Positions 1 through 36,287 are shown, counted from the first letter of the stretch. The stretch: DNA of 37,364 bases from a virus (IMGVR_UViG_2548876853_000021), one strand, 5' to 3'. Notes: a model not told the origin generated them from the sequence alone. A program made the numbers and translations.

Positions 1-258
1 ATGCAAACCGTTATTTTTGGTCGTTCGGGTTGCCCTTACTGTGTGCGTGCAAAAGATCTGGCTGAGAAATTGAGCAATGAACGCGATGATTTTCAGTATC
101 AGTATGTAGATATTCGTGCGGAAGGGATCACTAAAGAAGATCTACAACAAAAGGCAGGTAAACCCGTAGAAACCGTGCCGCAGATTTTTGTCGATCAGCA
201 ACATATCGGCGGCTATACCGATTTTGCTGCATGGGTGAAAGAAAATCTGGACGCCTGA
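1..258 (+). CDS. grxA: glutaredoxin 1
   Basis: 85-aa ORF with the CPYC dithiol active site (SGCPYCVRAK), full length and typical enterobacterial Grx1 size; starts at window position 1. Confidence 0.95.
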   Translation: MQTVIFGRSGCPYCVRAKDLAEKLSNERDDFQYQYVDIRAEGITKEDLQQKAGKPVETVPQIFVDQQHIGGYTDFAAWVKENLDA

Positions 259-268
259 TCGTCTGACA

Positions 269-300
269 AGCCCTCGCGTTGAGGGCTTTACTGATTTTTT
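269..300. terminator. hairpin between convergent grxA and ybjM, probable bidirectional intrinsic terminator
   Basis: inverted repeat agccctc-gcgtt-gagggct followed by a T-rich run, located between the two stop codons. Confidence 0.5.
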
Positions 301-665
301 CTGTGCTGTGGTTTAAACAAACTACTGATAAATAAGAAACACAGTGCCCCCAGCGCACACCAGAACACCGCGCTTAGTAACCATGCCAGCTCTTGCCAGA
401 ATGAGCGGGTCGGTGAAAAAAACAGCCGCATAATAAGCATTGAACAGGGTGCCGCCAGCATTGCGCCAAATAGAGGTTTCAGGACTTCTCTACGCTGTGA
501 AAAGAAACTGGCAACTGCTCCAGGAAGAATGAAAAACAGCAAGCCGATTTCAGGATACCCGGCAGCCCGAAAAGCGCCTTTCATGTGCGTCGCCAGAAAA
601 AGGCACACCACAATGAAGAGGACAAAACAGCAGATTGCCCCCGCCCAACGTTGTTTATGTTTCAC
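288..665 (-). CDS. ybjM: inner membrane protein YbjM
   Basis: 125-aa very hydrophobic ORF (about 4 predicted TM helices); conserved position between grxA and ybjL. Confidence 0.85.
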   Translation of the reverse strand: MKHKQRWAGAICCFVLFIVVCLFLATHMKGAFRAAGYPEIGLLFFILPGAVASFFSQRREVLKPLFGAMLAAPCSMLIMRLFFSPTRSFWQELAWLLSAVFWCALGALCFLFISSLFKPQHRKNQ

Positions 666-934
666 TCGTTCCTCCTGACACTGCGTCTATCGAACACATT
701 TTTCGCCAGTGTGGCGTTCAGTAAGATAAAGCCGCTTCGCATTCCATGCTAATATAGGCCAACGCAATTCATATAGCCGTTGATACCTAATGTGATTACA
801 CTAGTAAAATATATTGTTACTTTACTATCGTTTAGGTGCGCTGAATGAATCTGCGCCCTGAATTCTGGTAAAAAACATTATCGTAAATTACCATTTCTTT
901 CAACAGCTTACTAGTAAACAAGAAGTTAGCCTCC

Positions 935-2620
935 GTGAATATAAACGTCGCCGAATTGTTAAATGGGAATTACATTCTGTTATTATTTGTGGTCCTCGCG
1001 CTTGGGCTATGTCTCGGAAAGTTACGACTTGGTTCGATCCAACTGGGTAATTCCATTGGCGTTTTGGTCGTATCACTGTTATTAGGCCAACAACATTTCA
1101 GCATTAACACCGACGCGCTTAATCTTGGCTTTATGCTGTTTATTTTCTGCGTCGGGGTCGAAGCCGGACCGAACTTTTTTTCCATTTTTTTTCGCGATGG
1201 GAAAAATTACCTAATGTTAGCACTGGTGATGGTTGGCAGTGCGCTGGTGATCGCCTTAGGGTTAGGTAAGCTGTTTGGCTGGGATATTGGCCTGACGGCC
1301 GGTATGTTAGCAGGCTCTATGACGTCGACACCGGTTCTGGTCGGTGCTGGCGATACACTGCGTCATTCCGGCATGGAAAGCAGGCAGCTCTCACTGGCAC
1401 TGGATAATCTGAGCCTCGGGTATGCCTTAACCTATTTAATCGGTCTGGTGAGTTTGATTGTTGGTGCGCGTTACTTGCCGAAATTGCAGCATCAGGACTT
1501 ACAGACCAGCGCCCAGCAAATCGCCCGCGAACGTGGCCTGGACACTGATGCCAACCGTAAGGTTTATTTACCGGTGATCCGCGCCTATCGCGTCGGCCCG
1601 GAGCTGGTGGCCTGGACCGACGGCAAAAATCTGCGTGAACTGGGTATTTATCGACAAACCGGCTGCTACATTGAACGTATTCGACGTAACGGGATTCTGG
1701 CAAATCCAGACGGTGATGCCGTGCTACAAATGGGCGATGAAATAGCGTTGGTAGGCTATCCCGACGCCCATGCCCGACTCGATCCCAGCTTCCGTAACGG
1801 TAAAGAAGTTTTCGATCGTGACCTTCTCGACATGCGTATCGTCACTGAAGAAGTGGTCGTTAAAAACCATAACGCTGTAGGTAAACGTCTCGCACAACTG
1901 AAGTTGACCGATCACGGTTGCTTCCTTAACCGCGTCATTCGTAGCCAGATTGAGATGCCGATAGATGACAACGTCGTGCTTAACAAAGGTGACGTTTTAC
2001 AAGTCAGCGGTGATGCCCGTCGCGTAAAAACCATCGCCGATCGCATCGGCTTTATCTCGATTCACAGCCAGGTCACTGACCTGCTGGCATTTTGCGCCTT
2101 CTTTGTTATTGGGCTGATGATCGGGATGATCACCTTCCAGTTCAGCACATTCAGTTTCGGCATGGGGAACGCTGCCGGGTTGTTATTCGCCGGAATTATG
2201 CTGGGCTTTATGCGTGCTAACCACCCGACCTTCGGTTACATTCCGCAAGGTGCATTAAGCATGGTGAAAGAGTTCGGCTTGATGGTGTTTATGGCAGGCG
2301 TTGGTCTGAGCGCCGGTAGCGGTATTAATAACGGCCTGGGCGCGATTGGCGGTCAGATGTTGATTGCCGGATTAATTGTCAGTCTTGTGCCCGTGGTTAT
2401 CTGTTTCTTGTTCGGTGCTTATGTATTGCGAATGAACCGCGCACTGTTGTTCGGCGCAATGATGGGCGCACGCACCTGCGCGCCGGCAATGGAGATCATC
2501 AGTGATACAGCTCGCAGTAACATCCCTGCGCTGGGCTATGCGGGCACCTACGCAATCGCCAACGTCCTGCTGACGCTGGCAGGGACAATCATCGTCATGG
2601 TATGGCCAGGATTAGGATAA
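935..2620 (+). CDS. ybjL: putative AAE-family transporter YbjL
   Basis: 561-aa ORF with N- and C-terminal membrane domains flanking a soluble central region, as in YbjL/YidE-type transporters. Confidence 0.9.
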
Positions 2621-2732
2621 AACTGAAGTTGCCCTGAAAATGAAATTTTTTTGCACAACCGCAGAACTTTTCCGCAGGGCATCAGTCTTAATTAGTGCCA
2701 CTGCTTTTCTTTGATGTCCCCATTTTGTGGAG

Positions 2733-2776
2733 CCCATCAACCCCGCCATTTCGGTTCAAGGTTGATGGGTTTTTTG
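2733..2776 (+). terminator. intrinsic terminator downstream of ybjL
   Basis: stem cccatcaacc / ggttgatggg followed by TTTTTT. Confidence 0.5.
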
Positions 2777-2855
2777 TTGCCTGAAATTTAAGCTGTTTAA
2801 AATCATGATGTTAGAAACACTGTTTTTTAACGATGGCGACAAAATGGCGGCAGCG

Positions 2856-3074: not shown

Positions 3075-3164
3075 TTTTCGAGTTCTCCCCATTTTTGCTA
3101 AATTCACAATAATGATACCGCATTATTCCATTTTGCAAACTTAAAAGTTCTCCATTGCGAAGAA

Positions 3165-4265
3165 TCATTCCATTTCGAAATCATCAATCCTCACTTCAAG
3201 CTCCAGACTGGTTGTAAAACCGTTATCTGGGCTGACGGTATGCGTCAGAGTCGTAATGGTCCATTCCGCATCATCTATCGGCTGTTTAAAACCACTGACC
3301 TTCACAGGCATTTCCGTGTAGAGATCTGCCCGCCCTTCTGCCAGTTGTAGCGAAAATGACGCAACGCCGCGTTGCAGGCGTTCCCACTGCATTTTCGCCG
3401 CTCGTTCGGCGTTGCTCCGGTTGGCATAAGTGCGATTAAGTACCAGCACGTTTTCATCCGTACCCACCAGGTAATCGCCCTGCTTCGCTTCTGGCTCTTT
3501 CTTCTGCTTCTTAGTTCTGCGCTTACGCTTCACCGTGGTGCTTTCTTTCTTCGCAGGTTCGCGGGTATGCAACCAGCTGGCAATTACGCCCGTGTAGGCT
3601 CCGCGATCTGCCAGGGTAAATCGGTGACTGTCGCCGTCCTTGCGTGTGATAGTGATCACTGGCAGAGGTTTACCAGTGGCGCTTTTGCCCTGCCCCTGCC
3701 GGATGAATAACAGATTGCCATTTTTCACCGACGCGATGGCACCGTACTGTCGCGCCAGCCGCATCAGAAAACTGCCGTCACTCTCATTAGTCTGGTCTAT
3801 ATGCTCCACTGGCTTATCCGACAGGTCTTTACCCAGTGCCATCTTCAGCTTGTGCCGCGCGGCTATTTCCTTCACCACTTCCCCGACGGTGGTCTTATGC
3901 CACGATTTTTCACGGCGGGTATTCAGCGTTTCCCGAAAATCAGCACTTCGCGCCCGGATAGTCAGGCGGTCCGGTGCGCCAGTGTGTTCAATCTCGTCCA
4001 CCGTGAATGCCCCTTTCGGGAAAAGCGGCTGCCCCTTCCAGCCCAGCGCCAGCGTAATGACCGCACCACGGCGCGGCAGCACGATTTTTCCATCGGCGTC
4101 GTCCAGCTCCAGATCAAGCTGGTCCGCTTCAAAGCCCCGGTTATCCGTCAGCGTAAGCCCCATCAGGCGGTTGTCCAGCACAGTAGTGATATCCCTGCCT
4201 TCAATACTGATGCTGAATGCCGGAGTTTTGTTGCCTTTGTTAAGCAGTTCAGAGCTGAAATTCAC
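3165..4265 (-). CDS. D: tail protein D (late control gene D)
   Basis: 366 aa; position and size match P2 gpD, directly upstream of ogr. Confidence 0.85.
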   Translation of the reverse strand: MNFSSELLNKGNKTPAFSISIEGRDITTVLDNRLMGLTLTDNRGFEADQLDLELDDADGKIVLPRRGAVITLALGWKGQPLFPKGAFTVDEIEHTGAPDRLTIRARSADFRETLNTRREKSWHKTTVGEVVKEIAARHKLKMALGKDLSDKPVEHIDQTNESDGSFLMRLARQYGAIASVKNGNLLFIRQGQGKSATGKPLPVITITRKDGDSHRFTLADRGAYTGVIASWLHTREPAKKESTTVKRKRRTKKQKKEPEAKQGDYLVGTDENVLVLNRTYANRSNAERAAKMQWERLQRGVASFSLQLAEGRADLYTEMPVKVSGFKQPIDDAEWTITTLTHTVSPDNGFTTSLELEVRIDDFEME

Positions 4266-22166: not shown

Positions 22167-23933
22167 ATGAACACCACACTGACACCCGCAGATCTCGATC
22201 CCCGTCGGCAGGCCATGCTGCTGTACTTTCAGGGATACCGCGTAGCCCGCATTGCTGAAATGCTGGGCGAGAAAGTTGCAACCGTTCACAGCTGGAAAAA
22301 ACGCGACAAGTGGGGTGACTATGGGCCGCTGGATCAGATGCAGCTCACCACCGCCGCACGCTACTGCCAGCTCATCATGAAGGAGCACAAAGAAGGGAAA
22401 GATTTCAAAGAGATTGACCTGCTGGCGCGCCAGTCGGAGCGCCACGCGCGGATCGGCAAGTTTAACAATGGCGGCAACGAAGCCGACTTAAACCCTAACG
22501 TCGCCAACCGCAATAAAGGCCCACGCCGTCAGCCGGAAAAGAATGTTTTCACCGATGAGCAGATTGAGAAGCTGGAAGAAATCTTCCATTCCTCCATGTT
22601 CAACTACCAGCGCCACTGGTGGGAAGCCGGAAAAACCAACCGCATCCGCAACCTGCTGAAGTCACGCCAGATCGGCGCGACCTTTTACTTTGCCCGTGAA
22701 GCCCTGATTGACGCCCTGCTTACCGGACGTAACCAGATTTTCCTTTCCGCCAGCAAGGCACAGGCCCACGTCTTTAAGCAGTACATCATCGACTTCGCCA
22801 AAGAAGTGGGGGTGGAGTTGAAAGGCGATCCGATGGTGCTTCCTAACGGGGCCACGCTTTACTTCCTCGGCACCAATGCCCGCACGGCCCAGAGTTATCA
22901 CGGCAACCTGTATCTGGATGAATATTTCTGGATACCGAAATTCCAGGAGCTGCGCAAAGTGGCTTCCGGTATGGCTATTCACAAAAAATGGCGACAAACC
23001 TATTTTTCCACGCCATCCAGCCTGACACACAGTGCTTATCCGTTCTGGTCCGGTGCGCTGTTCAACCGTGGGCGCAACAAAGCCGATAAGGTGGACATCG
23101 ACCTGTCCCACAACAATCTGGCCCCCGGCCTGCTGTGCGCAGACGGGCAATACCGCCAGATAGTCACCGTGGAAGATGCGGTGCGCGGCGGCTGTAACCT
23201 GTTCGACCTCGACCAGTTGCGCATGGAGTACAGCCCGGACGAATACCAGAACCTGCTGATGTGTGAGTTCGTAGACGATCTCGCGTCCGTGTTCCCGCTC
23301 AGCGAGCTGCAGGCGTGCATGGTGGACAGCTGGGAAGTCTGGACCGACTTTCATGCACTGGCCCTGCGCCCGTTTGGCTGGCGCGAGGTGTGGATCGGTT
23401 ATGACCCGGCAAAAGGTACGCAGAACGGCGACAGTGCCGGATGCGTTGTGGTGGCTCCGCCAGCCGTGCCGGGCGGTAAGTTCCGCATTCTTGAGCGTCA
23501 CCAGTGGCGCGGGATGGACTTCCGCGCCCAGGCGGACGCCATCAAAAAACTGACCGAACAGTACAACGTGACCTATATCGGCATCGACTCGACCGGCGTC
23601 GGTCACGGGGTTTATGAGAACGTGAAAGCGTTCTTTCCTGCCGTCCGGGAGTTTGTCTACAACACCAACGTTAAAAACGCGCTGGTACTCAAGGCCTACG
23701 ACATTATCAGCCACCACCGTCTGGAGTTTGACGCCGGGCACACCGACATTGCGCAATCATTTATGGCAATCCGTCGCGCCACCACCGCCAGCGGCAACCG
23801 CCCGACCTATGAAGCCAGCCGCAGCGAAGAAGCCAGCCACGCCGATCTGGCCTGGGCAACAATGCACGCACTGTTTAACGAACCACTGCAGGGCGAGTCC
23901 GCCAATACAAGTAATATTGTGGAGATTTTTTGA
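22167..23933 (+). CDS. P: terminase large (ATPase) subunit P
   Basis: 588 aa; P2 gpP size and position. Confidence 0.9.
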   Translation: MNTTLTPADLDPRRQAMLLYFQGYRVARIAEMLGEKVATVHSWKKRDKWGDYGPLDQMQLTTAARYCQLIMKEHKEGKDFKEIDLLARQSERHARIGKFNNGGNEADLNPNVANRNKGPRRQPEKNVFTDEQIEKLEEIFHSSMFNYQRHWWEAGKTNRIRNLLKSRQIGATFYFAREALIDALLTGRNQIFLSASKAQAHVFKQYIIDFAKEVGVELKGDPMVLPNGATLYFLGTNARTAQSYHGNLYLDEYFWIPKFQELRKVASGMAIHKKWRQTYFSTPSSLTHSAYPFWSGALFNRGRNKADKVDIDLSHNNLAPGLLCADGQYRQIVTVEDAVRGGCNLFDLDQLRMEYSPDEYQNLLMCEFVDDLASVFPLSELQACMVDSWEVWTDFHALALRPFGWREVWIGYDPAKGTQNGDSAGCVVVAPPAVPGGKFRILERHQWRGMDFRAQADAIKKLTEQYNVTYIGIDSTGVGHGVYENVKAFFPAVREFVYNTNVKNALVLKAYDIISHHRLEFDAGHTDIAQSFMAIRRATTASGNRPTYEASRSEEASHADLAWATMHALFNEPLQGESANTSNIVEIF

Positions 23934-28326: not shown

Positions 28327-28515
28327 TCAACTGATTACATCCATCGACCTACTGTATTCATGGCTTCGAATTTTCGCCATCAACTCATCAGTCAATTCAG
28401 AAACCCACTGCAGAGCTAGCCCCTTCTCTTCATCACTACACTCACTAGCCGCTACAAGCTTAAGAAAAAAATCAATGCGCTGGAGCTTCAAAGACTCCAA
28501 AAAATAGTCCTGCAT
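28327..28515 (-). CDS. small hypothetical protein (about 62 aa, helical, acidic)
   Basis: internal ATG preceded by GGAGGAAAG; the longer ORF-track start (28617) is less likely. Confidence 0.4.
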   Translation of the reverse strand: MQDYFLESLKLQRIDFFLKLVAASECSDEEKGLALQWVSELTDELMAKIRSHEYSRSMDVIS

Positions 28516-28668
28516 CTTTCCTCCTATAACACCATACGCAATACTGTACATATAACCACTGTTTATATTTACAGTATATAATAATCTTACTGATGTAAAA
28601 CGTTTTTTTACGTTCATCAGCCTGATATGCCTGGTATTATTAAGAGCACGAATTGTTAACCCGCGTGA

Positions 28669-31083
28669 TTAATACAGGTTCCGCCACTTATCATCTTCCT
28701 GCAAACGCTGGTTCCGATAGAAGATACGCAGGCCTGCTCCTGACGGAATACTGCCACCGCAAAGGAGCAAATCGACCTCTTTCTCGCTGCCATCAAATCC
28801 TCTGGACTTCAGTTCATAGACGAGCTGCTGACGCTGATACTCTGTAATTCGCTGTTTGTAGTCTTTACGCCGTTTCGGTTTAACCAGGCGCAATCTTGCT
28901 GCCAGTTCCCGGCGCTCTTTTTTGCTCATACTGTGCAGGTAATCGTGCAATTCCTTGTCATCCATGCAGGTAATGTCCGTTCTGGTATCCCCATCTGCTG
29001 ATTCATCTTTCTCATGTTGGTTCAAATTTTCAGCAAGGGGACAGTTATTGCCACGAGTCCAAGGGGCGCAAGCGCCCTGGTCGGCTGCCGCCTCCTGAAC
29101 GTCAACGGCTTTACGAACCATTTTCCACTTCACTGCATGAGTGCAGATCTTGCCCTCTGCAATGGGTGACCAGATGCCATAAATACGAATACCGTGATCG
29201 CCATAGGCGGTCGGCTCTTCGTTGATTTCATAAGCGGTTCTGATGAGGTGATATTTACGGGGAACCAGTACGCCGCCCTGCTTCATGATGTAGGAGGCAA
29301 AGCAACCAGCATCAGCTGCAGCCAGAATGGCATCAAGGCGCGGGTTATCCAGTACCGGCGCACCTGCTTTTTTGTCACCCTGTTGCCTTGCCGCCTGACC
29401 AGCCAACAATCGCAGTTCACGGTAAGCCTGACGCCCCGGAATGCCAAAGAAGCGGAATTGCTGAACACGATGCAGAGACGCCCAGGCATTAACGTATTCA
29501 GCGTTATCACGCAGAGATTTCCCCGTTTCCTTGCTGATCTCGCCAGCCAGACCACGCCCGTCAATGTTCTTACTGATGTATTTCGCGATATAGCTTGTTG
29601 GCGTACCTTTGCGCGGGTTAATCAACTCAGACTTAAAGCGCGGCCCAGTGTTATTGCCCAGCTCCTCGCGGTCTTCACGGATGGCAAACTTACGCAGTAA
29701 TGCAGTGATGGCGCGGCGGTCTTTTTTGCGCATAAAACACAACAGGTGCCAGTGAACTGTACCGTCATGATGCGGCTCAGCCACCCGCACGCCATACCAG
29801 CGCAATCCGGCTTTGTGCATCGCCTTACGAAATGCAGCAAACATGCCGACCAGATAATCACTACTTTGTCTTACCGTCGCATTTGTCCAGGTTGGGTTGG
29901 ACCTGCCGTTATTTAGCGTGGAATGGAAACGTGACGGACAGGTGATGGTGTAGAAAACGGCGCAGTCACCGCGCATTTCCGCGATAAGCTCCAGACCTTT
30001 AACACAGGCCATCATCTCATTGCGGCGATGCGCAGGGTTGCTGCTGCTGGCGTTTACCACATCCTCCATGTCCAGCGTGTCGCCGTCTTCGTTCACCAGT
30101 TCATGAGAACGGAAAAACTCCAGCGACTTACGGCGCTGCTCACGTTTATGCATCACGGCTTCATAGCTGACATAAGGAGATGCTTTTTTGCTGACCAGGC
30201 AGACAGCGCGCAACTGCTCTTCCCGCCATTCGCAACGCATCTTCCATAATTTCCGATACCACCAGTCGGCGCACAACATACGCGCCAGCGAACCCGGAAT
30301 GAGTTCATAGGGCACGGGTTTACGGCGGTTTCTTTTCCAGCGGAGTTGCTCAAACGCAGGTGGGATGACATCCAGACGCAGGGTTTCCGCTGCCACCTTT
30401 TCCCATGTCTTGCGGATTTCTTCTGGCTTAACATCATCGGTGGCGTACAAATCACCACAAGCGGCATCAAGACACATGCTCATATGCGCAGCGACAAGAG
30501 TAGACAGGCGTTTCACCTGATCCTGACTCATTTCAGGCAGGATCAGCAGGCCGTCCAGCCCTTCATGGCTTGCCATAAAGCGAAAAGAAGTGGATAGCTG
30601 ACTGTCGCGTACATGCTCCAGTCGTTCCAGACATGGCTTAATCGTCTCACGCAAATAGCGGGAATAAGCCTTTGGCCTGCCCAGGCTGCTGAAGTATTCA
30701 ATACGTTGCATCAGCGGCTTGCTGATATGGGAAGACTGGGCGTTTACGTCCGCCAGAATGACCATGTCTGGATTAAAACGCTGCTGCTCATGCGCCAGCT
30801 TTGCCCGGCTAATGAGCTTATCCTGCTCCATTTCGCGCTGGACAGGATCACGGGATTCATTAAAGAAATAACGCTCCCAGACCTGCTCACTCAGTGCCTC
30901 GCGGCGCAGTTGTTCCTGTTCGTTATCGGCAGCGTACAGAGTGATCAGGTTTGAAAGTGCAGACTCCGGCGCAACTTCCGCCGGATCCAGATAAGGGTTA
31001 ATGGCCTTTTTCGGGCCGTTCCATGAAAATGATGCAGCGGCCTCGTTAAAGCCGCTAGAGTTGCTCATATCGTCATGACTCAT
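28669..31083 (-). CDS. A: replication initiation protein A (rolling-circle initiator)
   Basis: 804 aa; P2/186 gpA size and position; ATGA overlap with the upstream dam stop. Confidence 0.9.
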
Positions 31084-31937
31084 ACACGCACCTCGTACAC
31101 AGCAGAACTATCCACGCCACGCGAAGGATCAAATCCCACCCAGCAGCGCGCCCCAGAAACAGCAATGATTTCTGTTGCAGATTTACTCTCGCCAGCCGAC
31201 ACGCCGATGCTGCGTTTTGCCTTGATGTAGTGGTGAGTAAAATTGCGATACAGCGAACGGATCAGGGATGTGTCACTGTTAGAAACAATGACCGGATGTC
31301 CTTCTGATGACCGATGTTCAAGAACAGATGCCAGGTGATACTGGTCATCTTCAGTGAAGCCGTCAGTGTGATAGCCGGAAAACGTACCGTCATACGGCGG
31401 ATCGCAATACACCACATCCCCCGCCTTCAACATCGCCAGCGTTTCATCAAAGCTGGCGCAGATAAACGTTGCTCGCTGGGCCTTTTCTGCAAATGCGCGA
31501 ATTTCTTTTTCAGGGAAATACGGATTTTTATAATTACCGTAGGGAATGTTGAAATGCCCGCTCTTGTTATAGCGACATAAACCACGGTAACCGTGACGAT
31601 TGAGATACAGGAAATATACCGCTTTCATGAAATCAGTAATTTCAGTTGAGTAATTAAACTCCTGCCTTATGTTGTAATAAGTCACCTCCCTGTTTGCTTC
31701 CTCAAATAAAGCTCTGGCGCGAGATATAAACGATTCACAATCAGCGGCAACCTTTTTATAGAGGTTGATTAAATCAGGATTAATATCCGCAACCAGATAG
31801 CTGGGATAATCCGTCTCCATCATCACAGCACAGGAACCCGCGAAAGGTTCAACCAGTCGCGGGCCAGCAGGAAGATGTTTTTTCAGTTCGGACATTATGG
31901 CAGTTTTATTTCCCGCCCATTTCAGGATGGTGCTCAT
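31080..31937 (-). CDS. dam: DNA adenine methyltransferase (Dam-like)
   Basis: about 285 aa from [11 protein letters not shown]; motifs EPFAGS (AdoMet binding) and DPPY (catalytic). Confidence 0.85.
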
Positions 31938-32161
31938 ACAGCACCTCCGTTGTAATGTTTGCCTTTCAGCTCTGCGATTTCCTGACAGGTAATGCAAAGC
32001 TGCACCCCCGGAATGGCACGGCGGCGTGCTGGCGGAATTGGCGCTTCACACTCAATGCAAAGCACGCGGGACACGCCCGGTGTTTTGGCGCGGGCAGCAC
32101 GGATATGACGCTGGCGTTCTTCTTCAACGCGCTGCTGTACGAGATCCATTGCATCAGCCAT
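31934..32161 (-). CDS. DksA/TraR-family C4 zinc-finger protein
   Basis: 75 aa; CIEC-x17-CITC. Confidence 0.75.
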   Translation of the reverse strand: MADAMDLVQQRVEEERQRHIRAARAKTPGVSRVLCIECEAPIPPARRRAIPGVQLCITCQEIAELKGKHYNGGAV

Positions 32162-33224: not shown

Positions 33225-33734
33225 TCACAGCAAACCGAATGAAGCACCGAGGCCAGTCACGGTATCAACTGCACTCGCCATCGCAGGATTAGCCTGTAAA
33301 CGGGCCTGCAATGAAACAGCCGCCAGCGCCATCAGTCGTGTTACAGAATTAATGCTGCTGATCGCATCGCGACGGCCTGCACTGGTTTTTACATCGCCAG
33401 AAACCGCACCTGCAGCAACACGCCCGATCTCTGCGGTTGCACTCATGACGTAATGTGGCAGTCTCTCTTTTGCCACCTCATTTACCGGTATACATGGCAG
33501 GCAGTGAATCTGAGCCAGAAATCCATCAACCAGTGTTGGGTCTTCAGTGAGATCGGTTAACTGCCAGATATCTGACGCAGTAAGTTGGTGTGGTTGTTCC
33601 GGGTTGAGCTTGTTACGCAAGGTTTGAACGTTCATACCTGCGCGCTCTGCCAGCTTCGCCATGTTGTGTCGTAGGGCGAAGGCCCGGCAGGCTTCATTGA
33701 AATGGGGATGTTTTGAAATGCGATAGTCAAACAT
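33225..33734 (-). CDS. cII: CII-like regulatory protein (186 CII type)
   Basis: 169 aa, same length as 186 CII; second gene of the lytic operon after apl. Confidence 0.75.
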   Translation of the reverse strand: MFDYRISKHPHFNEACRAFALRHNMAKLAERAGMNVQTLRNKLNPEQPHQLTASDIWQLTDLTEDPTLVDGFLAQIHCLPCIPVNEVAKERLPHYVMSATAEIGRVAAGAVSGDVKTSAGRRDAISSINSVTRLMALAAVSLQARLQANPAMASAVDTVTGLGASFGLL

Positions 33735-33766
33735 AGTCAGTTGCTCCGTGAAGTCTCAAAATGGAA

Positions 33767-33988
33767 CTAGTTGATAGTCACGTTGCAATCAGAGAGGGCA
33801 TCGATCGTCATCGCAGCAATGTTAATCATCACTTTTTCACGCTTTTTATCCTTACGTAGGCGATGACGAGGCAAACGCCCATCTGCAAGCATGTCGTTAA
33901 TTGTGTCGATAGATAAGCCAGTGAGTTCACTATATCTTTCTATAGTAACGTGGGGGGTGATGAGAGTGATTGAAATGTTAGGTCTCAT
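33767..33988 (-). CDS. apl: Apl/Cox-like excisionase-repressor
   Basis: 73 aa from ATG with AAGAGGA Shine-Dalgarno; small basic HTH protein divergent from cI. Confidence 0.7.
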   Translation of the reverse strand: MRPNISITLITPHVTIERYSELTGLSIDTINDMLADGRLPRHRLRKDKKREKVMINIAAMTIDALSDCNVTIN

Positions 33989-34113
33989 GATGCAACATTC
34001 CTCTTTTAGCAATGATTAATCAGGATGAATACTGATCGTTTGTATTATGTGAACACTGCAAACATACGATCACATCATGAAATCGTCAAGGTAAAAGTTC
34101 ACTTGGAGTGACC
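33989..34113. promoter_or_regulatory. apl-cI intergenic switch region with candidate operator dyad
   Basis: 125-bp AT-rich region between divergent genes; inverted repeat tgatcgtttgt (34033-34043) / acatacgatca (34062-34072). Confidence 0.5.
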
Positions 34114-34677
34114 ATGAATTTGGAAAAAGGCGGTCGTGGGGCCATAGAGCGCATGGTTGAAGCCTATGGTTTCAAGACAAGACAAGCTTTGTGTGATCAT
34201 TTGGGCATTTCTAAAAGCACCTTAGCCACGCGCTATATGCGTGATTCATTCCCGGCAGAATGGGTAATCCAATGTGCACTTGAAACCGGCACGTCGCTAG
34301 AGTGGCTAACTACTGGGCAAGGTTCAAAAGAAAGTTCACAAAAAGAAAACACAAAAGAGATCGAAAGGAAGATTTTATCAAGCGGAAAACTACTTCCTGA
34401 TGGTTACTACATTTTCGACAACAACTTTTTGCCTGAAAAACTAAAAAAACCTTTTGTTGTGATCGATGGCGCATCAGAGTTTATCTGTGATTCGGATTAT
34501 GAGGATGTACGTGATGGTAAGTGGATCGTTGATATTGATGGCGAGGTTGCTATCAGGAATCTGACAAGACTGCCGGGACGTCGTCTAAATGTCGATGGCG
34601 GCAGCAGTTCCTTTGAATGCAAAATAGATGAAATTGATATCATAGGAAAAATTAGAAGCGCGATCGTCAATTATTAA
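34114..34677 (+). CDS. cI: CI immunity repressor (186 CI type)
   Basis: 187 aa from ATG with GGAG Shine-Dalgarno; N-terminal HTH; size and position as 186 CI. Confidence 0.8.
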
Positions 34678-34700
34678 AATTAATGTATAAGGAAATAAAT

Positions 34701-34886
34701 ATGTTTTATAAATCTATACATATCCTACTTATTTGTTTATTTATTACTTTACCTATTACAAGTTTTGCAAAAAATTATCCATGTTCTGGTAAGAAAGGGG
34801 GAGTTTCACATTGTACATCTGATGGGAAGTTCGTTTGCAATGATGGAACGCAAAGCAAGTCAAAGAAAATATGTTCTAAAAACTAA
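34701..34886 (+). CDS. small secreted Cys-rich peptide (predicted signal peptide, about 38-aa mature peptide)
   Basis: [23 protein letters not shown] signal-like N-terminus, then a Lys-rich mature region with 4 Cys; AAGGA Shine-Dalgarno; very AT-rich. Confidence 0.5.
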
Positions 34887-34897
34887 GGTTGCTTCAT

Positions 34898-36229
34898 ATG
34901 AATAATGATATGACTTTTGAAAACAGAGATGAGTATAATAGAAAAATCATTGCTGAAAAAATAATAAGCTTACTCGAGTCCCCCTTAAAAATATCCCCTA
35001 TTGTTATCGATGGGGACTGGGGTACCGGTAAAACCGAATTTTCAAAAAAATTAGCGGCATTGATTGAAAAAAATGAATCTGGGCATAAAGTAGTATATAT
35101 TGATGCATTTACTGAAGATCATAATGATGCTCCCATACTTACTATAATGGCTGCAATAGTTGCATTATATCCAGAGAGTGAAAAGAAGGAATTAATATCA
35201 AAGGCATTACCAGCATTGAGATTTGGACTTAAAACTGTACTCAAAGCTGGCGCTGGGTGGATTTTAAAACAAAATGCAGATGATATTGCGGATGAATTCG
35301 AAGATGCTATTAAAGATGCGGCTAACTCAGCTATAGATGGTACTGTAGAAGCACTGCTTGATGATCATATTGAAGCAAAGAAACATTTGCTTGCTCTCAA
35401 GGAAGTACTTGCTGAACTAACTAGCGAAAATAAAATAACAATTATCATTGACGAACTTGACCGTTGTAAACCAAGCTTTGCCATCTCTATCATCGAAAAT
35501 ATAAAACATGTTTTTGACACTGAAAATCTTAACTTCTTGTTAGTTGCTAACATCTCACAATTGAAAGCATCAATAAATCATATTTACGGTGCAGGTGTTG
35601 ACTCAGAAAGATATCTTGATAAATTTATAAAATTCACTTACAGCCTGCCAGTGACTTTCACTGAAAACAATTACGATAAAATTTTGGCTTCGAACTCTCA
35701 TTTTAGAATGCTATGTAACGAGTCTGAAAGACTAAAAGAAATTGGAGAAAGTAGTATTCATATAGTTCAAAAATTTATCGAACTAAAAGGCTTGTCGCTA
35801 CGGGAAGTTGAAACCTTATCAAGATATCTAGAAATTTATCAAATTTTATCTCAAAATGAAATCAGCAATAAATTTATACCAGGCTATTGCTGTTATCGAA
35901 CCCTTGCAGTAATTCTTTATTCGTTTGGTCGTGAACTGGCCCTTAACTACGTAGAAGATAAAATAGATGCACAATTAATAATCAATTTCTTCGGTGTTAA
36001 TAGACTCCCATATCAGACAGATCAATATAACATCAACATCTACTATTATGCATTATTTGGTATAACTTATAAATATATGCCAGAAGGTTCTCCTTTACTT
36101 CCTTCTGAAAACGATGAAAAAAACAGATGGGCTGAAATAAGTGATTATCATATTTTAAAAGGAAATGCAGGTGTAGAAGACCCTGTTAGAATATTCAAAA
36201 ACACCTTAAAAGTTTTCTTGCTCCAATGA
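34898..36229 (+). CDS. KAP-family P-loop NTPase
   Basis: 443 aa; Walker A GDWGTGKT and Walker B IIIDELDRC typical of KAP NTPases; Shine-Dalgarno overlaps the stop of the upstream small ORF; AT-rich. Confidence 0.8.
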   Translation: MNNDMTFENRDEYNRKIIAEKIISLLESPLKISPIVIDGDWGTGKTEFSKKLAALIEKNESGHKVVYIDAFTEDHNDAPILTIMAAIVALYPESEKKELISKALPALRFGLKTVLKAGAGWILKQNADDIADEFEDAIKDAANSAIDGTVEALLDDHIEAKKHLLALKEVLAELTSENKITIIIDELDRCKPSFAISIIENIKHVFDTENLNFLLVANISQLKASINHIYGAGVDSERYLDKFIKFTYSLPVTFTENNYDKILASNSHFRMLCNESERLKEIGESSIHIVQKFIELKGLSLREVETLSRYLEIYQILSQNEISNKFIPGYCCYRTLAVILYSFGRELALNYVEDKIDAQLIINFFGVNRLPYQTDQYNINIYYYALFGITYKYMPEGSPLLPSENDEKNRWAEISDYHILKGNAGVEDPVRIFKNTLKVFLLQ

Positions 36230-36287
36230 AATGTTTGATTGAAGATCTTTAAACATTGACCACTGTTCAAACATACAGTTAAATTTA

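Follow-up and report, generated by a model that had tools for sequence, protein, structure and literature searches.

The gap between a divergent apl-like gene and a cI gene in an E. coli prophage raises two connected questions: which kind of genetic switch is encoded there, and which sequences in the gap are recognized by the repressor, in particular whether a long inverted repeat identified in the first-pass annotation as a candidate CI operator is indeed the unit that CI binds. The window, that is, the whole analysed stretch of 37,364 nucleotides, belongs to a prophage of the P2/186 family and shows 100% identity to E. coli TO6 (NZ_LS992166) over bases 33700-34900. The exact switch region is present in 9 of the 5426 complete E. 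coli genomes, with no other exact carriers among them; a further 285 of these genomes have 80-90% matches that span apl, the gap and the beginning of cI. The left 2.7 kb of the window (1-2790) is host DNA, with the end of a thioredoxin-fold gene at 1-258 and an aspartate:alanine antiporter gene at 935-2620. The att core ATGGGTTTTTTGTT is located at 2765-2778, and its second copy lies about 80 bp past the int stop codon in the source genome, adjoining rcdA (L104 1165-1255); the int stop codon is the exact end of the window. The gap and the genes around it are the following.

33225-33734, minus strand: cII, 169 aa, activator of lysogenic establishment (Pfam Phage_CP76, 9e-43; phrog_101)
33767-33988, minus strand: apl/cox-like gene, 73 aa, first in the lytic operon (phrog_575, 9e-30; no Pfam match)
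33989-34113: intergenic gap, 125 bp, GC content 36.8% compared with 51% for the window
34114-34677, plus strand: cI, 187 aa from the ATG at 34114, 186-type immunity repressor (Pfam PF07022 and PF16452)

Recomputed open reading frames agree with the earlier coordinates and sizes of the three genes and of the low-GC gap. A fil homologue directly follows cII, which gives the gene order int-cI / apl-cII-fil.

P2-like regulatory regions split into the P2 and 186 types (Nilsson and Haggard-Ljungquist 2011, PMC3448106). The C repressor of P2 is a half-size, unrelated protein that binds direct repeats, and P2 has no cII (PMC3448106, PMC2995052). Common to the window and the P2 C/Cox switch are early promoters that converge (by prediction in the window) and a first lytic gene that encodes a Cox/Apl-family protein; in contrast, the traits that mark the P2 type, namely a small C repressor, direct-repeat operators and the lack of cII, do not apply to it, with a 186-type repressor encoded and cII present. 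Both Pfam domains of the CI protein were built on 186 CI (PF07022, Phage_CI_repr, N-terminal, 3e-33; PF16452, Phage_CI_C, C-terminal, 6e-29), and the protein is 37% identical to 186 CI (BLASTP, 2e-40) and matches the PDB entries 2FJR (8.5e-33) and 2FKD (8e-15). Across its full 169 aa, the CII protein shares 68% identity with 186 CII. The 73-aa protein is assigned to phrog_575 ('Cox-like excisionase and repressor'), and so is 186 Apl (2.8e-9). Alignment with the 186 proteins succeeds for CI and CII; for Apl, pairwise BLASTP similarity extends to 8/20 residues only. A PDB match of the Apl-like protein to 8VD6 was rejected as a spurious helix-turn-helix-like match because 8VD6 is a de novo designed repeat protein.

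The arrangement of regulatory sites can be compared directly with 186, whose sequence record annotates the whole switch (pR, pL, pE and the CI, Apl and CII sites) and served as the reference for offsets. The predicted promoters and the predicted CII site are located as follows.

34061-34089, minus strand: predicted pR, TTGACG (34089-84), 17-nt spacer, TATGTT (34066-61), start near 34054; found by promoter scan
33970-33998, plus strand: predicted pL, TTGAAA (33970-75), 17-nt spacer, CAACAT (33993-98), start near 34005; positioned as in the 186 annotation
33707-33734, minus strand: predicted CII site at the start of cII, ATGTTTG-N13-AAAACAT; aligned to the annotated 186 CII site

The pR pattern TTGAC[AG]-N12-GATC-N-TAnnnT occurs at the corresponding place in 15/15 representatives from at least 7 heteroimmune groups, as well as in phages SEN8 and Cartapus, and is absent from 186, ESSI2_ev129 and Yersinia phage 06.16-2. 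The pL hexamers, at +14..+19 and -10..-5 from the apl ATG, have the offsets of the annotated 186 pL, and TTGAAA-N17-CAnnAT is retained in relatives that carry a different Apl type. Of the two predicted promoters, pR was recovered by the scan and is conserved, whereas pL scores below the scan threshold and was placed by homology to 186. Given starts near 34054 (minus strand) and 34005 (plus strand), the two predicted promoters face each other, and their transcripts would therefore share about 50 bp, as they do in 186. The CII site annotated in 186 (23435-23462) reads ATGTTTG-N13-CAAACAT; the half-sites of the window match it at 13/14 positions and the whole site at 22/28. No core hexamers of pE were identified with confidence at the predicted CII site. 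The marks of a 186-type switch that are found in the window are the two-domain CI, a Cox/Apl gene divergent from cI, cII directly after apl, and the CII half-sites. Considering the homology of CI (two domains and 37% identity), CII (68%) and Apl (at the PHROG level), the fil gene, the pL and CII-site offsets and the predicted facing promoters, the assignment of this switch to 186 rather than to P2 is therefore right.

Between the two promoters, at 34014-34023, the predicted pL leader contains a perfect 10-bp palindrome, TGATTAATCA. All but one of the same-immunity haplotypes defined below retain it, and TAATCA recurs at this place in L007 and L008, both of which have the same Apl type as the window. 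This palindrome may serve as a site for Apl or be contacted weakly by CI. A search for Apl operators, in the form of direct repeats with a 10-11 bp period, covered the pR-pL interval and the att arm on the int side (NZ_LS992166) and gave no convincing motif shared by the two regions; AACTTATTGTTTT, which occurs twice in that att arm, more likely represents Int arm sites than Apl operators.

The inverted repeat noted in the gap is real. It reads TGATCGTTTGT-N18-ACATACGATCA, with 10/11 positions matched (91% complementary), and a repeat tool recovered it at exactly the same place (as I12, 34033-34043 / 34062-34072). Its arms are composed as follows.

34033-34043: left dyad arm, TGATCGTTTGT; holds a GATC (34034-37) and GTTTGT, the weak half of the predicted CI site O-c listed below
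34062-34072: right dyad arm, ACATACGATCA; made up of five bases of the pR -10 hexamer, a single intervening base and the conserved GATC (34068-71)

On the minus strand the right arm reads T-GATC-G-TATGT, which is the GATC ahead of the pR -10 hexamer. The dyad was described as overlapping the promoters; it does overlap pR and does not reach pL. The dyad stands out from chance only modestly: a repeat at least as good (11-nt arms, at most one mismatch, spacer of at most 40) appears in 5.3% of dinucleotide and 3.2% of mononucleotide shuffles of the gap. Taken as a 40-bp palindrome around 34052.5, the region has 14/20 matched pairs, a value reached by 1.4-1.8% of shuffles, with the half-length picked post hoc. 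A second, overlapping dyad (I5), longer and looser, pairs 34037-52 with 34070-85 at 12/16 positions, and at loose settings of the repeat tool the same 1 kb contains 26 inverted pairs.

Conservation was followed in 84 same-immunity loci that share a common CI N-terminal domain and collapse into 37 spacer haplotypes without indels. The outer pair of the dyad (34033/34072) is unpaired in 22/37 haplotypes; at 34033, T occurs in 13 haplotypes and G in 23, and at 34072, 9 haplotypes have A, 26 have G and a single one has T. In L006, both arms are changed without compensation, and across the 37 haplotypes no covariation was detected, all measures being equal to those of shuffled controls. Most of the gap is invariant among the same-immunity relatives, so that conservation of nearly the whole gap cannot by itself decide between registers. 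The centres of the dyad arms are 29 bp apart, as against the 17-bp 6-N5-6 dyads of the annotated 186 B-type sites, and no such dyad is present in the aligned heteroimmune relatives L007 and 813R9. The proposal that the dyad is a CI operator is accordingly not well supported, considering its geometry, the identity of its right arm with the promoter, the loss of the outer pair and its absence from L007. Judged on these comparisons, the dyad is most likely not the unit recognized by a CI dimer. The case illustrates that an obvious long dyad should not be equated with an operator without a footprint. A perfect inner dyad of the PhiECO1-type haplotype, TTTGTG-GTGTT-CACAAA, was likewise considered and rejected as a conserved operator because it falls where variation is greatest (34057-59) and has 3/6 matches in the window.

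The better candidates for CI recognition are 17-bp sites of the form found in 186, where all the annotated B-type CI sites (FL, FR and pB) are 6-N5-6 dyads: FL is CTTCAC TTAAT GTGAAT, FR is ATTCAC TTTAT GTGAAT, and the two pB sites, ATTCAC AAAAA GTGAAT and ATTCAC GAATT GAGAAT, are 32 bp apart. Four sites of this form are predicted in and near the gap.

34097-34113: O-a, best predicted CI site, GTTCAC TTGGA GTGACC; abuts the cI ATG and covers its ribosome-binding site
34068-34084: O-b, weak predicted CI site in the pR spacer, GATCAC ATCAT GAAATC; 4 mismatches to GTTCAC-N5-GTGAAC
34038-34054: O-c, predicted CI site, GTTTGT ATTAT GTGAAC (minus strand GTTCAC ATAAT ACAAAC); begins 6 nt after the pR -10
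34334-34350: predicted FL-like intragenic site (+220) in the cI linker, GTTCAC AAAAA GAAAAC; 2 mismatches

The arms of the dyad overlap two of the predicted 17-bp sites, so the first-pass annotation had looked at the right 80 bp. In the 37 kb, O-a is the sole match to GTTCAC-N5-GTGAAC with at most one mismatch, and with two mismatches allowed only the +220 site joins it, for a consensus that was partly derived from the window sequence itself; O-a is also among the three matches with at most one mismatch to the 186-derived core TTCAC-N5-GTGAA. Across haplotypes, the only commonly variable position of O-a is the spacer base 34103. O-c is nearly invariant in 36 haplotypes (singletons at 34042, 34047 and 34051), and one of its halves matches at 3/6 only. 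O-b is identical to O-c on the opposite strand at 12/17 positions, which corresponds to dyad I5. The +220 site is kept as GTTCAC-N5-GnnAAC in about 21/76 relatives despite very different linker peptides; it is near-perfect in L033 (GGTCACAAAATGTGAAC) and degenerate in the PhiECO1-type majority. By a position weight matrix built solely from the four annotated 186 B-type sites, the +220 site ranks 6th, O-a 31st, O-c 40th and O-b 365th among 37348 17-mers. The 5th rank of the same matrix is held by ATTCGGATTATGAGGAT at 34490-34506, in the region of cI that encodes the C-terminal domain.

At 186 pR, the three CI operators are spaced two helical turns apart (PMC3675496). The predicted sites O-a, O-b and O-c differ from this arrangement, with distances of 29 and 30 bp, which is about 2.8 turns and not integral, so that the sites would not lie on one face of the helix. 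In 186, the distal CI sites FL and FR flank the switch at a distance of about 300 bp on each side. No FR-like site with at most 3 mismatches was found at a consistent place near the apl/cII junction in 76 relatives, and no CI site with at most 3 mismatches at the promoter of the ogr/B homologue (~3108-3165), where there is a lone GTGAAT half. An unbiased search for three-copy motifs gave no significant result in the window (88/150 and 51/150 shuffles) and none in L007 (101/150), and the best 12-mer pair of the window in this search is the 11-N18-11 dyad itself. With these points weighed, we lean, with somewhat better than even confidence, towards recognition by CI of 17-bp 6-N5-6 sites at 34097-113, 34068-84 (weakly) and 34038-54, along with 34334-50, within a switch modelled on 186.

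The heteroimmune relatives bear on the choice between the two registers. The closest of these, L007 from Ewingella, has a CI recognition helix nearly identical to that of the window, and in a manual reading of the alignment only 1/11 positions of the dyad are matched in its gap. Counted from the -10 end, L007 carries the 17-mers GATCAC ACCAT GTATAC (-53), GTTACC AAATG GTGATC (-24) and GTCTAC AAAAC GTGAAC (+6); at the same offsets the window has GGTCAC TCCAA GTGAAC (34113-34097), GATTTC ATGAT GTGATC (34084-34068) and GTTCAC ATAAT ACAAAC (34054-34038). The L007 counterpart of O-b, GATCAC CATTT GGTAAC, has 3 mismatches and occupies the same place. In phage 813R9, a perfect 16-bp palindrome, GTACCCAATTGGGTAC (GTACCC-AATT-GGGTAC), is found at the O-c position, and a second copy, matched at 12/16, lies 59 bp away at the O-a position; 59 bp is also the distance from O-a to O-c in the window and in L007. 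Dyads at the O-c position are GGTTTG-N5-CAAACC in L009-L012, ATTCCC-N5-GGGAAT in L017 and GTCTAC-N5-GTGAAC in L007; those of L009-L012, L020/L021 and L017 are perfect or near-perfect 6-N5-6 dyads that start 6-8 nt past the -10. In the three-copy motif search, ESSI2_ev129 (0/150 shuffles) and L008 (1/150) reached significance, and L013 gave a weaker signal (18/150). The elements in these three switches are located at about -55..-45, -24..-16 and +5..+10, with the last one inverted, and the centre of the inverted pair is at most 2 bp from the -10 end; in the window, the corresponding centres are -1 for the I5 pair (O-b/O-c) and +8.5 for the 11-N18-11 dyad. The family comparison thus points to the register of the predicted 17-bp sites rather than to that of the dyad. 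A second scan of the collection with the CI alignment recovered the same immunity group again and added no diversity.

Spacing of operator-like elements around pR by 29-31 bp is seen in at least four heteroimmune switches (the window, L007 at 1423-1498, L008 and L189). This corresponds to about three turns, compared to two at 186 pR, and the promoter-distal element is often inverted.

Several other readings of the dyad were weighed against the 17-bp sites. Under one of them, the dyad arms themselves are the true CI elements, with an asymmetric unit of about 12 bp, sTGAwC kTwTry, present in three copies, so that CI units on the second and third would enclose the pR -10 and start. The copies are GTGAACTTTTAC (34102-34091, minus strand), GTGATCGTATGT (34073-34062, minus strand) and CTGATCGTTTGT (34032-34043, plus strand); the first and second copies are direct repeats at a distance of 29 bp, and the third has the inverted orientation. 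No 12-mer pair in the gap scores better than the dyad, which is equalled in only about 2-5% of shuffles, and its core, GATCGTTTGT / ACATACGATC, is retained in nearly all of the 37 haplotypes. Significant inverted repeats that bracket the -10 and the start are also present in ESSI2_ev129 (TTTGGAAAGTT-N12-AACATTCCAAA, 10/11) and in L008 (CCCAAAGCGA-N21-TCGATTTGGG, 9/10), each with a third direct copy 29-31 bp upstream. It is because of these long inverted repeats around the -10 in two other switches that the reading, although unlikely, retains some weight. Against it, the third copy in the window is matched at 7/12 only, the dyad centre at +8.5 departs from the -1 to +2 seen in ESSI2_ev129, L008 and L013, and the right arm is accounted for by the GATC and the -10, which are conserved whatever the immunity; furthermore, L007 lacks the dyad despite its very similar recognition helix, and the outer pair is broken in 22/37 haplotypes. 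It is rather improbable that the dyad has no function of its own and reflects a chance likeness between the pR GATC/-10 and the sequence downstream of O-c. Such an origin would agree with the 3-5% of shuffles that equal the dyad, the 26 inverted pairs per 1 kb and the absence of the dyad from L007 and 813R9; the arms are invariant in most same-immunity haplotypes, which would speak against chance, but so is most of the gap. Finally, both arms fall inside the predicted pL transcript and are paired in its minimum-free-energy fold, as would be expected if the dyad formed a functional hairpin in the cI mRNA leader. However, the folding energy does not stand out (z = -1.05, with 29/200 shuffles folding as well), there is no covariation, and the closing pair is broken in 22/37 sequences; this reading was rejected as close to refuted by the ordinary fold energy and the absent covariation.

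The GATC in the right arm calls for separate consideration. A GATC exactly one base upstream of the pR -10 is present in 17/20 of the switches examined, in otherwise unrelated spacers; the carriers are the window (34068-34071), L002, L003, L007-L015, L017, L020, L021, L187 and L188. A Dam-type methyltransferase is encoded in the pR operon (31080-31997, minus strand), and the left GATC (34034-37) is retained in 35/36 same-immunity haplotypes. These three observations would fit a dyad that matters through two GATCs mirrored across the pR start, where methylation, acting through Dam, through SeqA or directly on RNA polymerase, modulates pR and ties lytic transcription to replication. As an explanation of the dyad this appears very unlikely: the left GATC is restricted to the immunity group of the window, and the promoter GATC is missing from 186, ESSI2_ev129 and Yersinia phage 06.16-2. 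The 34-bp spacing of the two GATCs exceeds the range for SeqA pairs. A more general idea, that the lytic promoter of this switch family senses Dam methylation, with hemimethylation or the phage enzyme tuning pR or CI occupancy, is doubtful as well; were it true, hemimethylation upon fork passage would couple the lysis-lysogeny decision to replication. Under this idea, the second GATC, mirrored across the start in the immunity class of the window, may be what makes the dyad. No report of Dam control of these promoters was identified in a small literature search.

As for the immunity class, the closest known systems are PhiECO1, PhiECO2 and PhiSEN1, a class with a 125-nt spacer named in 2011 (PMC3448106). 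PhiECO1 of E. coli HS, whose CI, Apl and CII are the proteins of locus L002, is integrated next to rcdA, at the same site as the prophage in the window. The 125-nt cI-apl spacers are about 89% identical, the CI N-terminal domains 97% and the Apl proteins 90%; in contrast, the CI C-terminal domains are 55% identical (71% for CI overall), and the cargo between cI and int is different. Because the DNA-binding domain and the spacer match those of the PhiECO1 class, the architecture is already known, and the window and this class probably have a common operator specificity, as far as these sequences indicate. The window is a further 186-type switch in the immunity class known since 2011 from E. coli HS, although the formal definition of the class, CI more than 96% identical and the 125-nt spacer 98-100% identical (PMC3448106), is narrower than the 71% and about 89% found here. 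In the phage collection, there is no isolated phage in which the CI N-terminal domain is more than 78.5% identical to that of the window.

The similarity to 186 itself includes the gene order int-cI / apl-cII-fil, the two-domain CI, the length of the gap (125 compared with 129 bp), the predicted facing pR and pL, and the 186 B-type form (6-N5-6) of the candidate CI sites. The differences are that the Apl protein belongs to another subgroup (73 aa in the window and 87 aa in 186, with similarity at the family level only), that the window has no A-type CAATTGGG operators and its candidate sites are 29-30 bp rather than two turns apart, that an FR-like site is absent and the ogr/B promoter has no clear CI site, and that it encodes no Tum homologue and carries a defence-like gene between cI and int. 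Phage 813R9 (vB_EcoM-813R9) and the Klebsiella P2-like phages 4LV2017 and ST11-OXA245phi3.1 share the apl-cII-fil module at 82-84% DNA identity and the switch layout, including the 59-bp spacing of two operator-like sites around pR. Unlike the window, they have an unrelated spacer and operators that resemble the 186 A-type (GTACCCAATTGGGTAC); they are probably heteroimmune to the phage in the window.

Altogether, the interval is the lysis-lysogeny (immunity) switch of an integrated 186-type P2-like E. coli phage; that CI represses pR there through the 17-bp sites is a model we hold with slightly more confidence than doubt. We infer promoter activity, every protein-DNA contact and the choice of register from homologies, positions and conservation, which are themselves observed, and the individual steps from homology with 186. 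A strong pR, with its start near 34054 on the minus strand, would drive apl-cII-fil and the genes beyond, and a weak lysogenic pL, with its start near 34005 on the plus strand, would drive cI and the cargo genes up to int. In a lysogen, CI bound to the predicted sites around pR (about -59 to +16) would silence apl-cII-fil and the replication genes, and its occupancy at pR would relieve interference on pL; the intragenic site at 34334-34350 may be an auxiliary CI site. Upon infection, CII would bind where its own gene begins and drive leftward establishment transcription, whereas Apl would repress the switch and direct excision. The meaning of this switch beyond annotation is limited. It does provide a testable map (pR, pL, three candidate CI sites and the intragenic site) for this immunity class, and the 29-30 bp spacing, if real, would inform how 186-like repressor oligomers with diverged C-terminal domains engage DNA.

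The CI proteins of this immunity group are mosaic. In 84 loci (L002-L006 and L022-L101), the N-terminal domain is 93-100% identical to that of the window, and the C-terminal oligomerisation domain is 33-100% identical, with 28 distinct proteins represented; one set of operators is therefore combined with C-terminal domains that differ widely. This mosaicism may reflect recombination in the linker, avoidance of mixed oligomers or escape from antirepressors.

Two cargo genes are located between cI and int, in the predicted lysogenic operon. One of these (34683-34886) encodes a 67-aa YdcA-like protein with a hydrophobic N-terminus, and the other (34901-36229) a KAP-family P-loop NTPase with a 3e-171 match to PDC-S20, a candidate defence system in PADLOC. 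In the PhiECO1-type relatives, a different small gene is found at this place.

The window lacks a homologue of Tum, the LexA-controlled antirepressor that characterizes the 186 type, the best match in a tblastn search of the window with 186 Tum having an E value of 0.075, and induction therefore probably proceeds without Tum. A 62-aa ORF (28327-28515, minus strand; a member of phrog_698, function unknown) has a canonical LexA box, TACTGTAAATATAAACAGT (core 28559-28574), upstream of it. This ORF directly follows replication gene A, which is the position of p95/tum in 186, and is unrelated to Tum; by analogy of position and control, it may encode a non-homologous SOS-controlled antirepressor. 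A second CTGT-N8-ACAG sequence, CTGTTCAAACATACAG, is found at 36263-36278, between the KAP NTPase gene and int, so that the window contains two such sequences compared to about 0.6 expected by chance.
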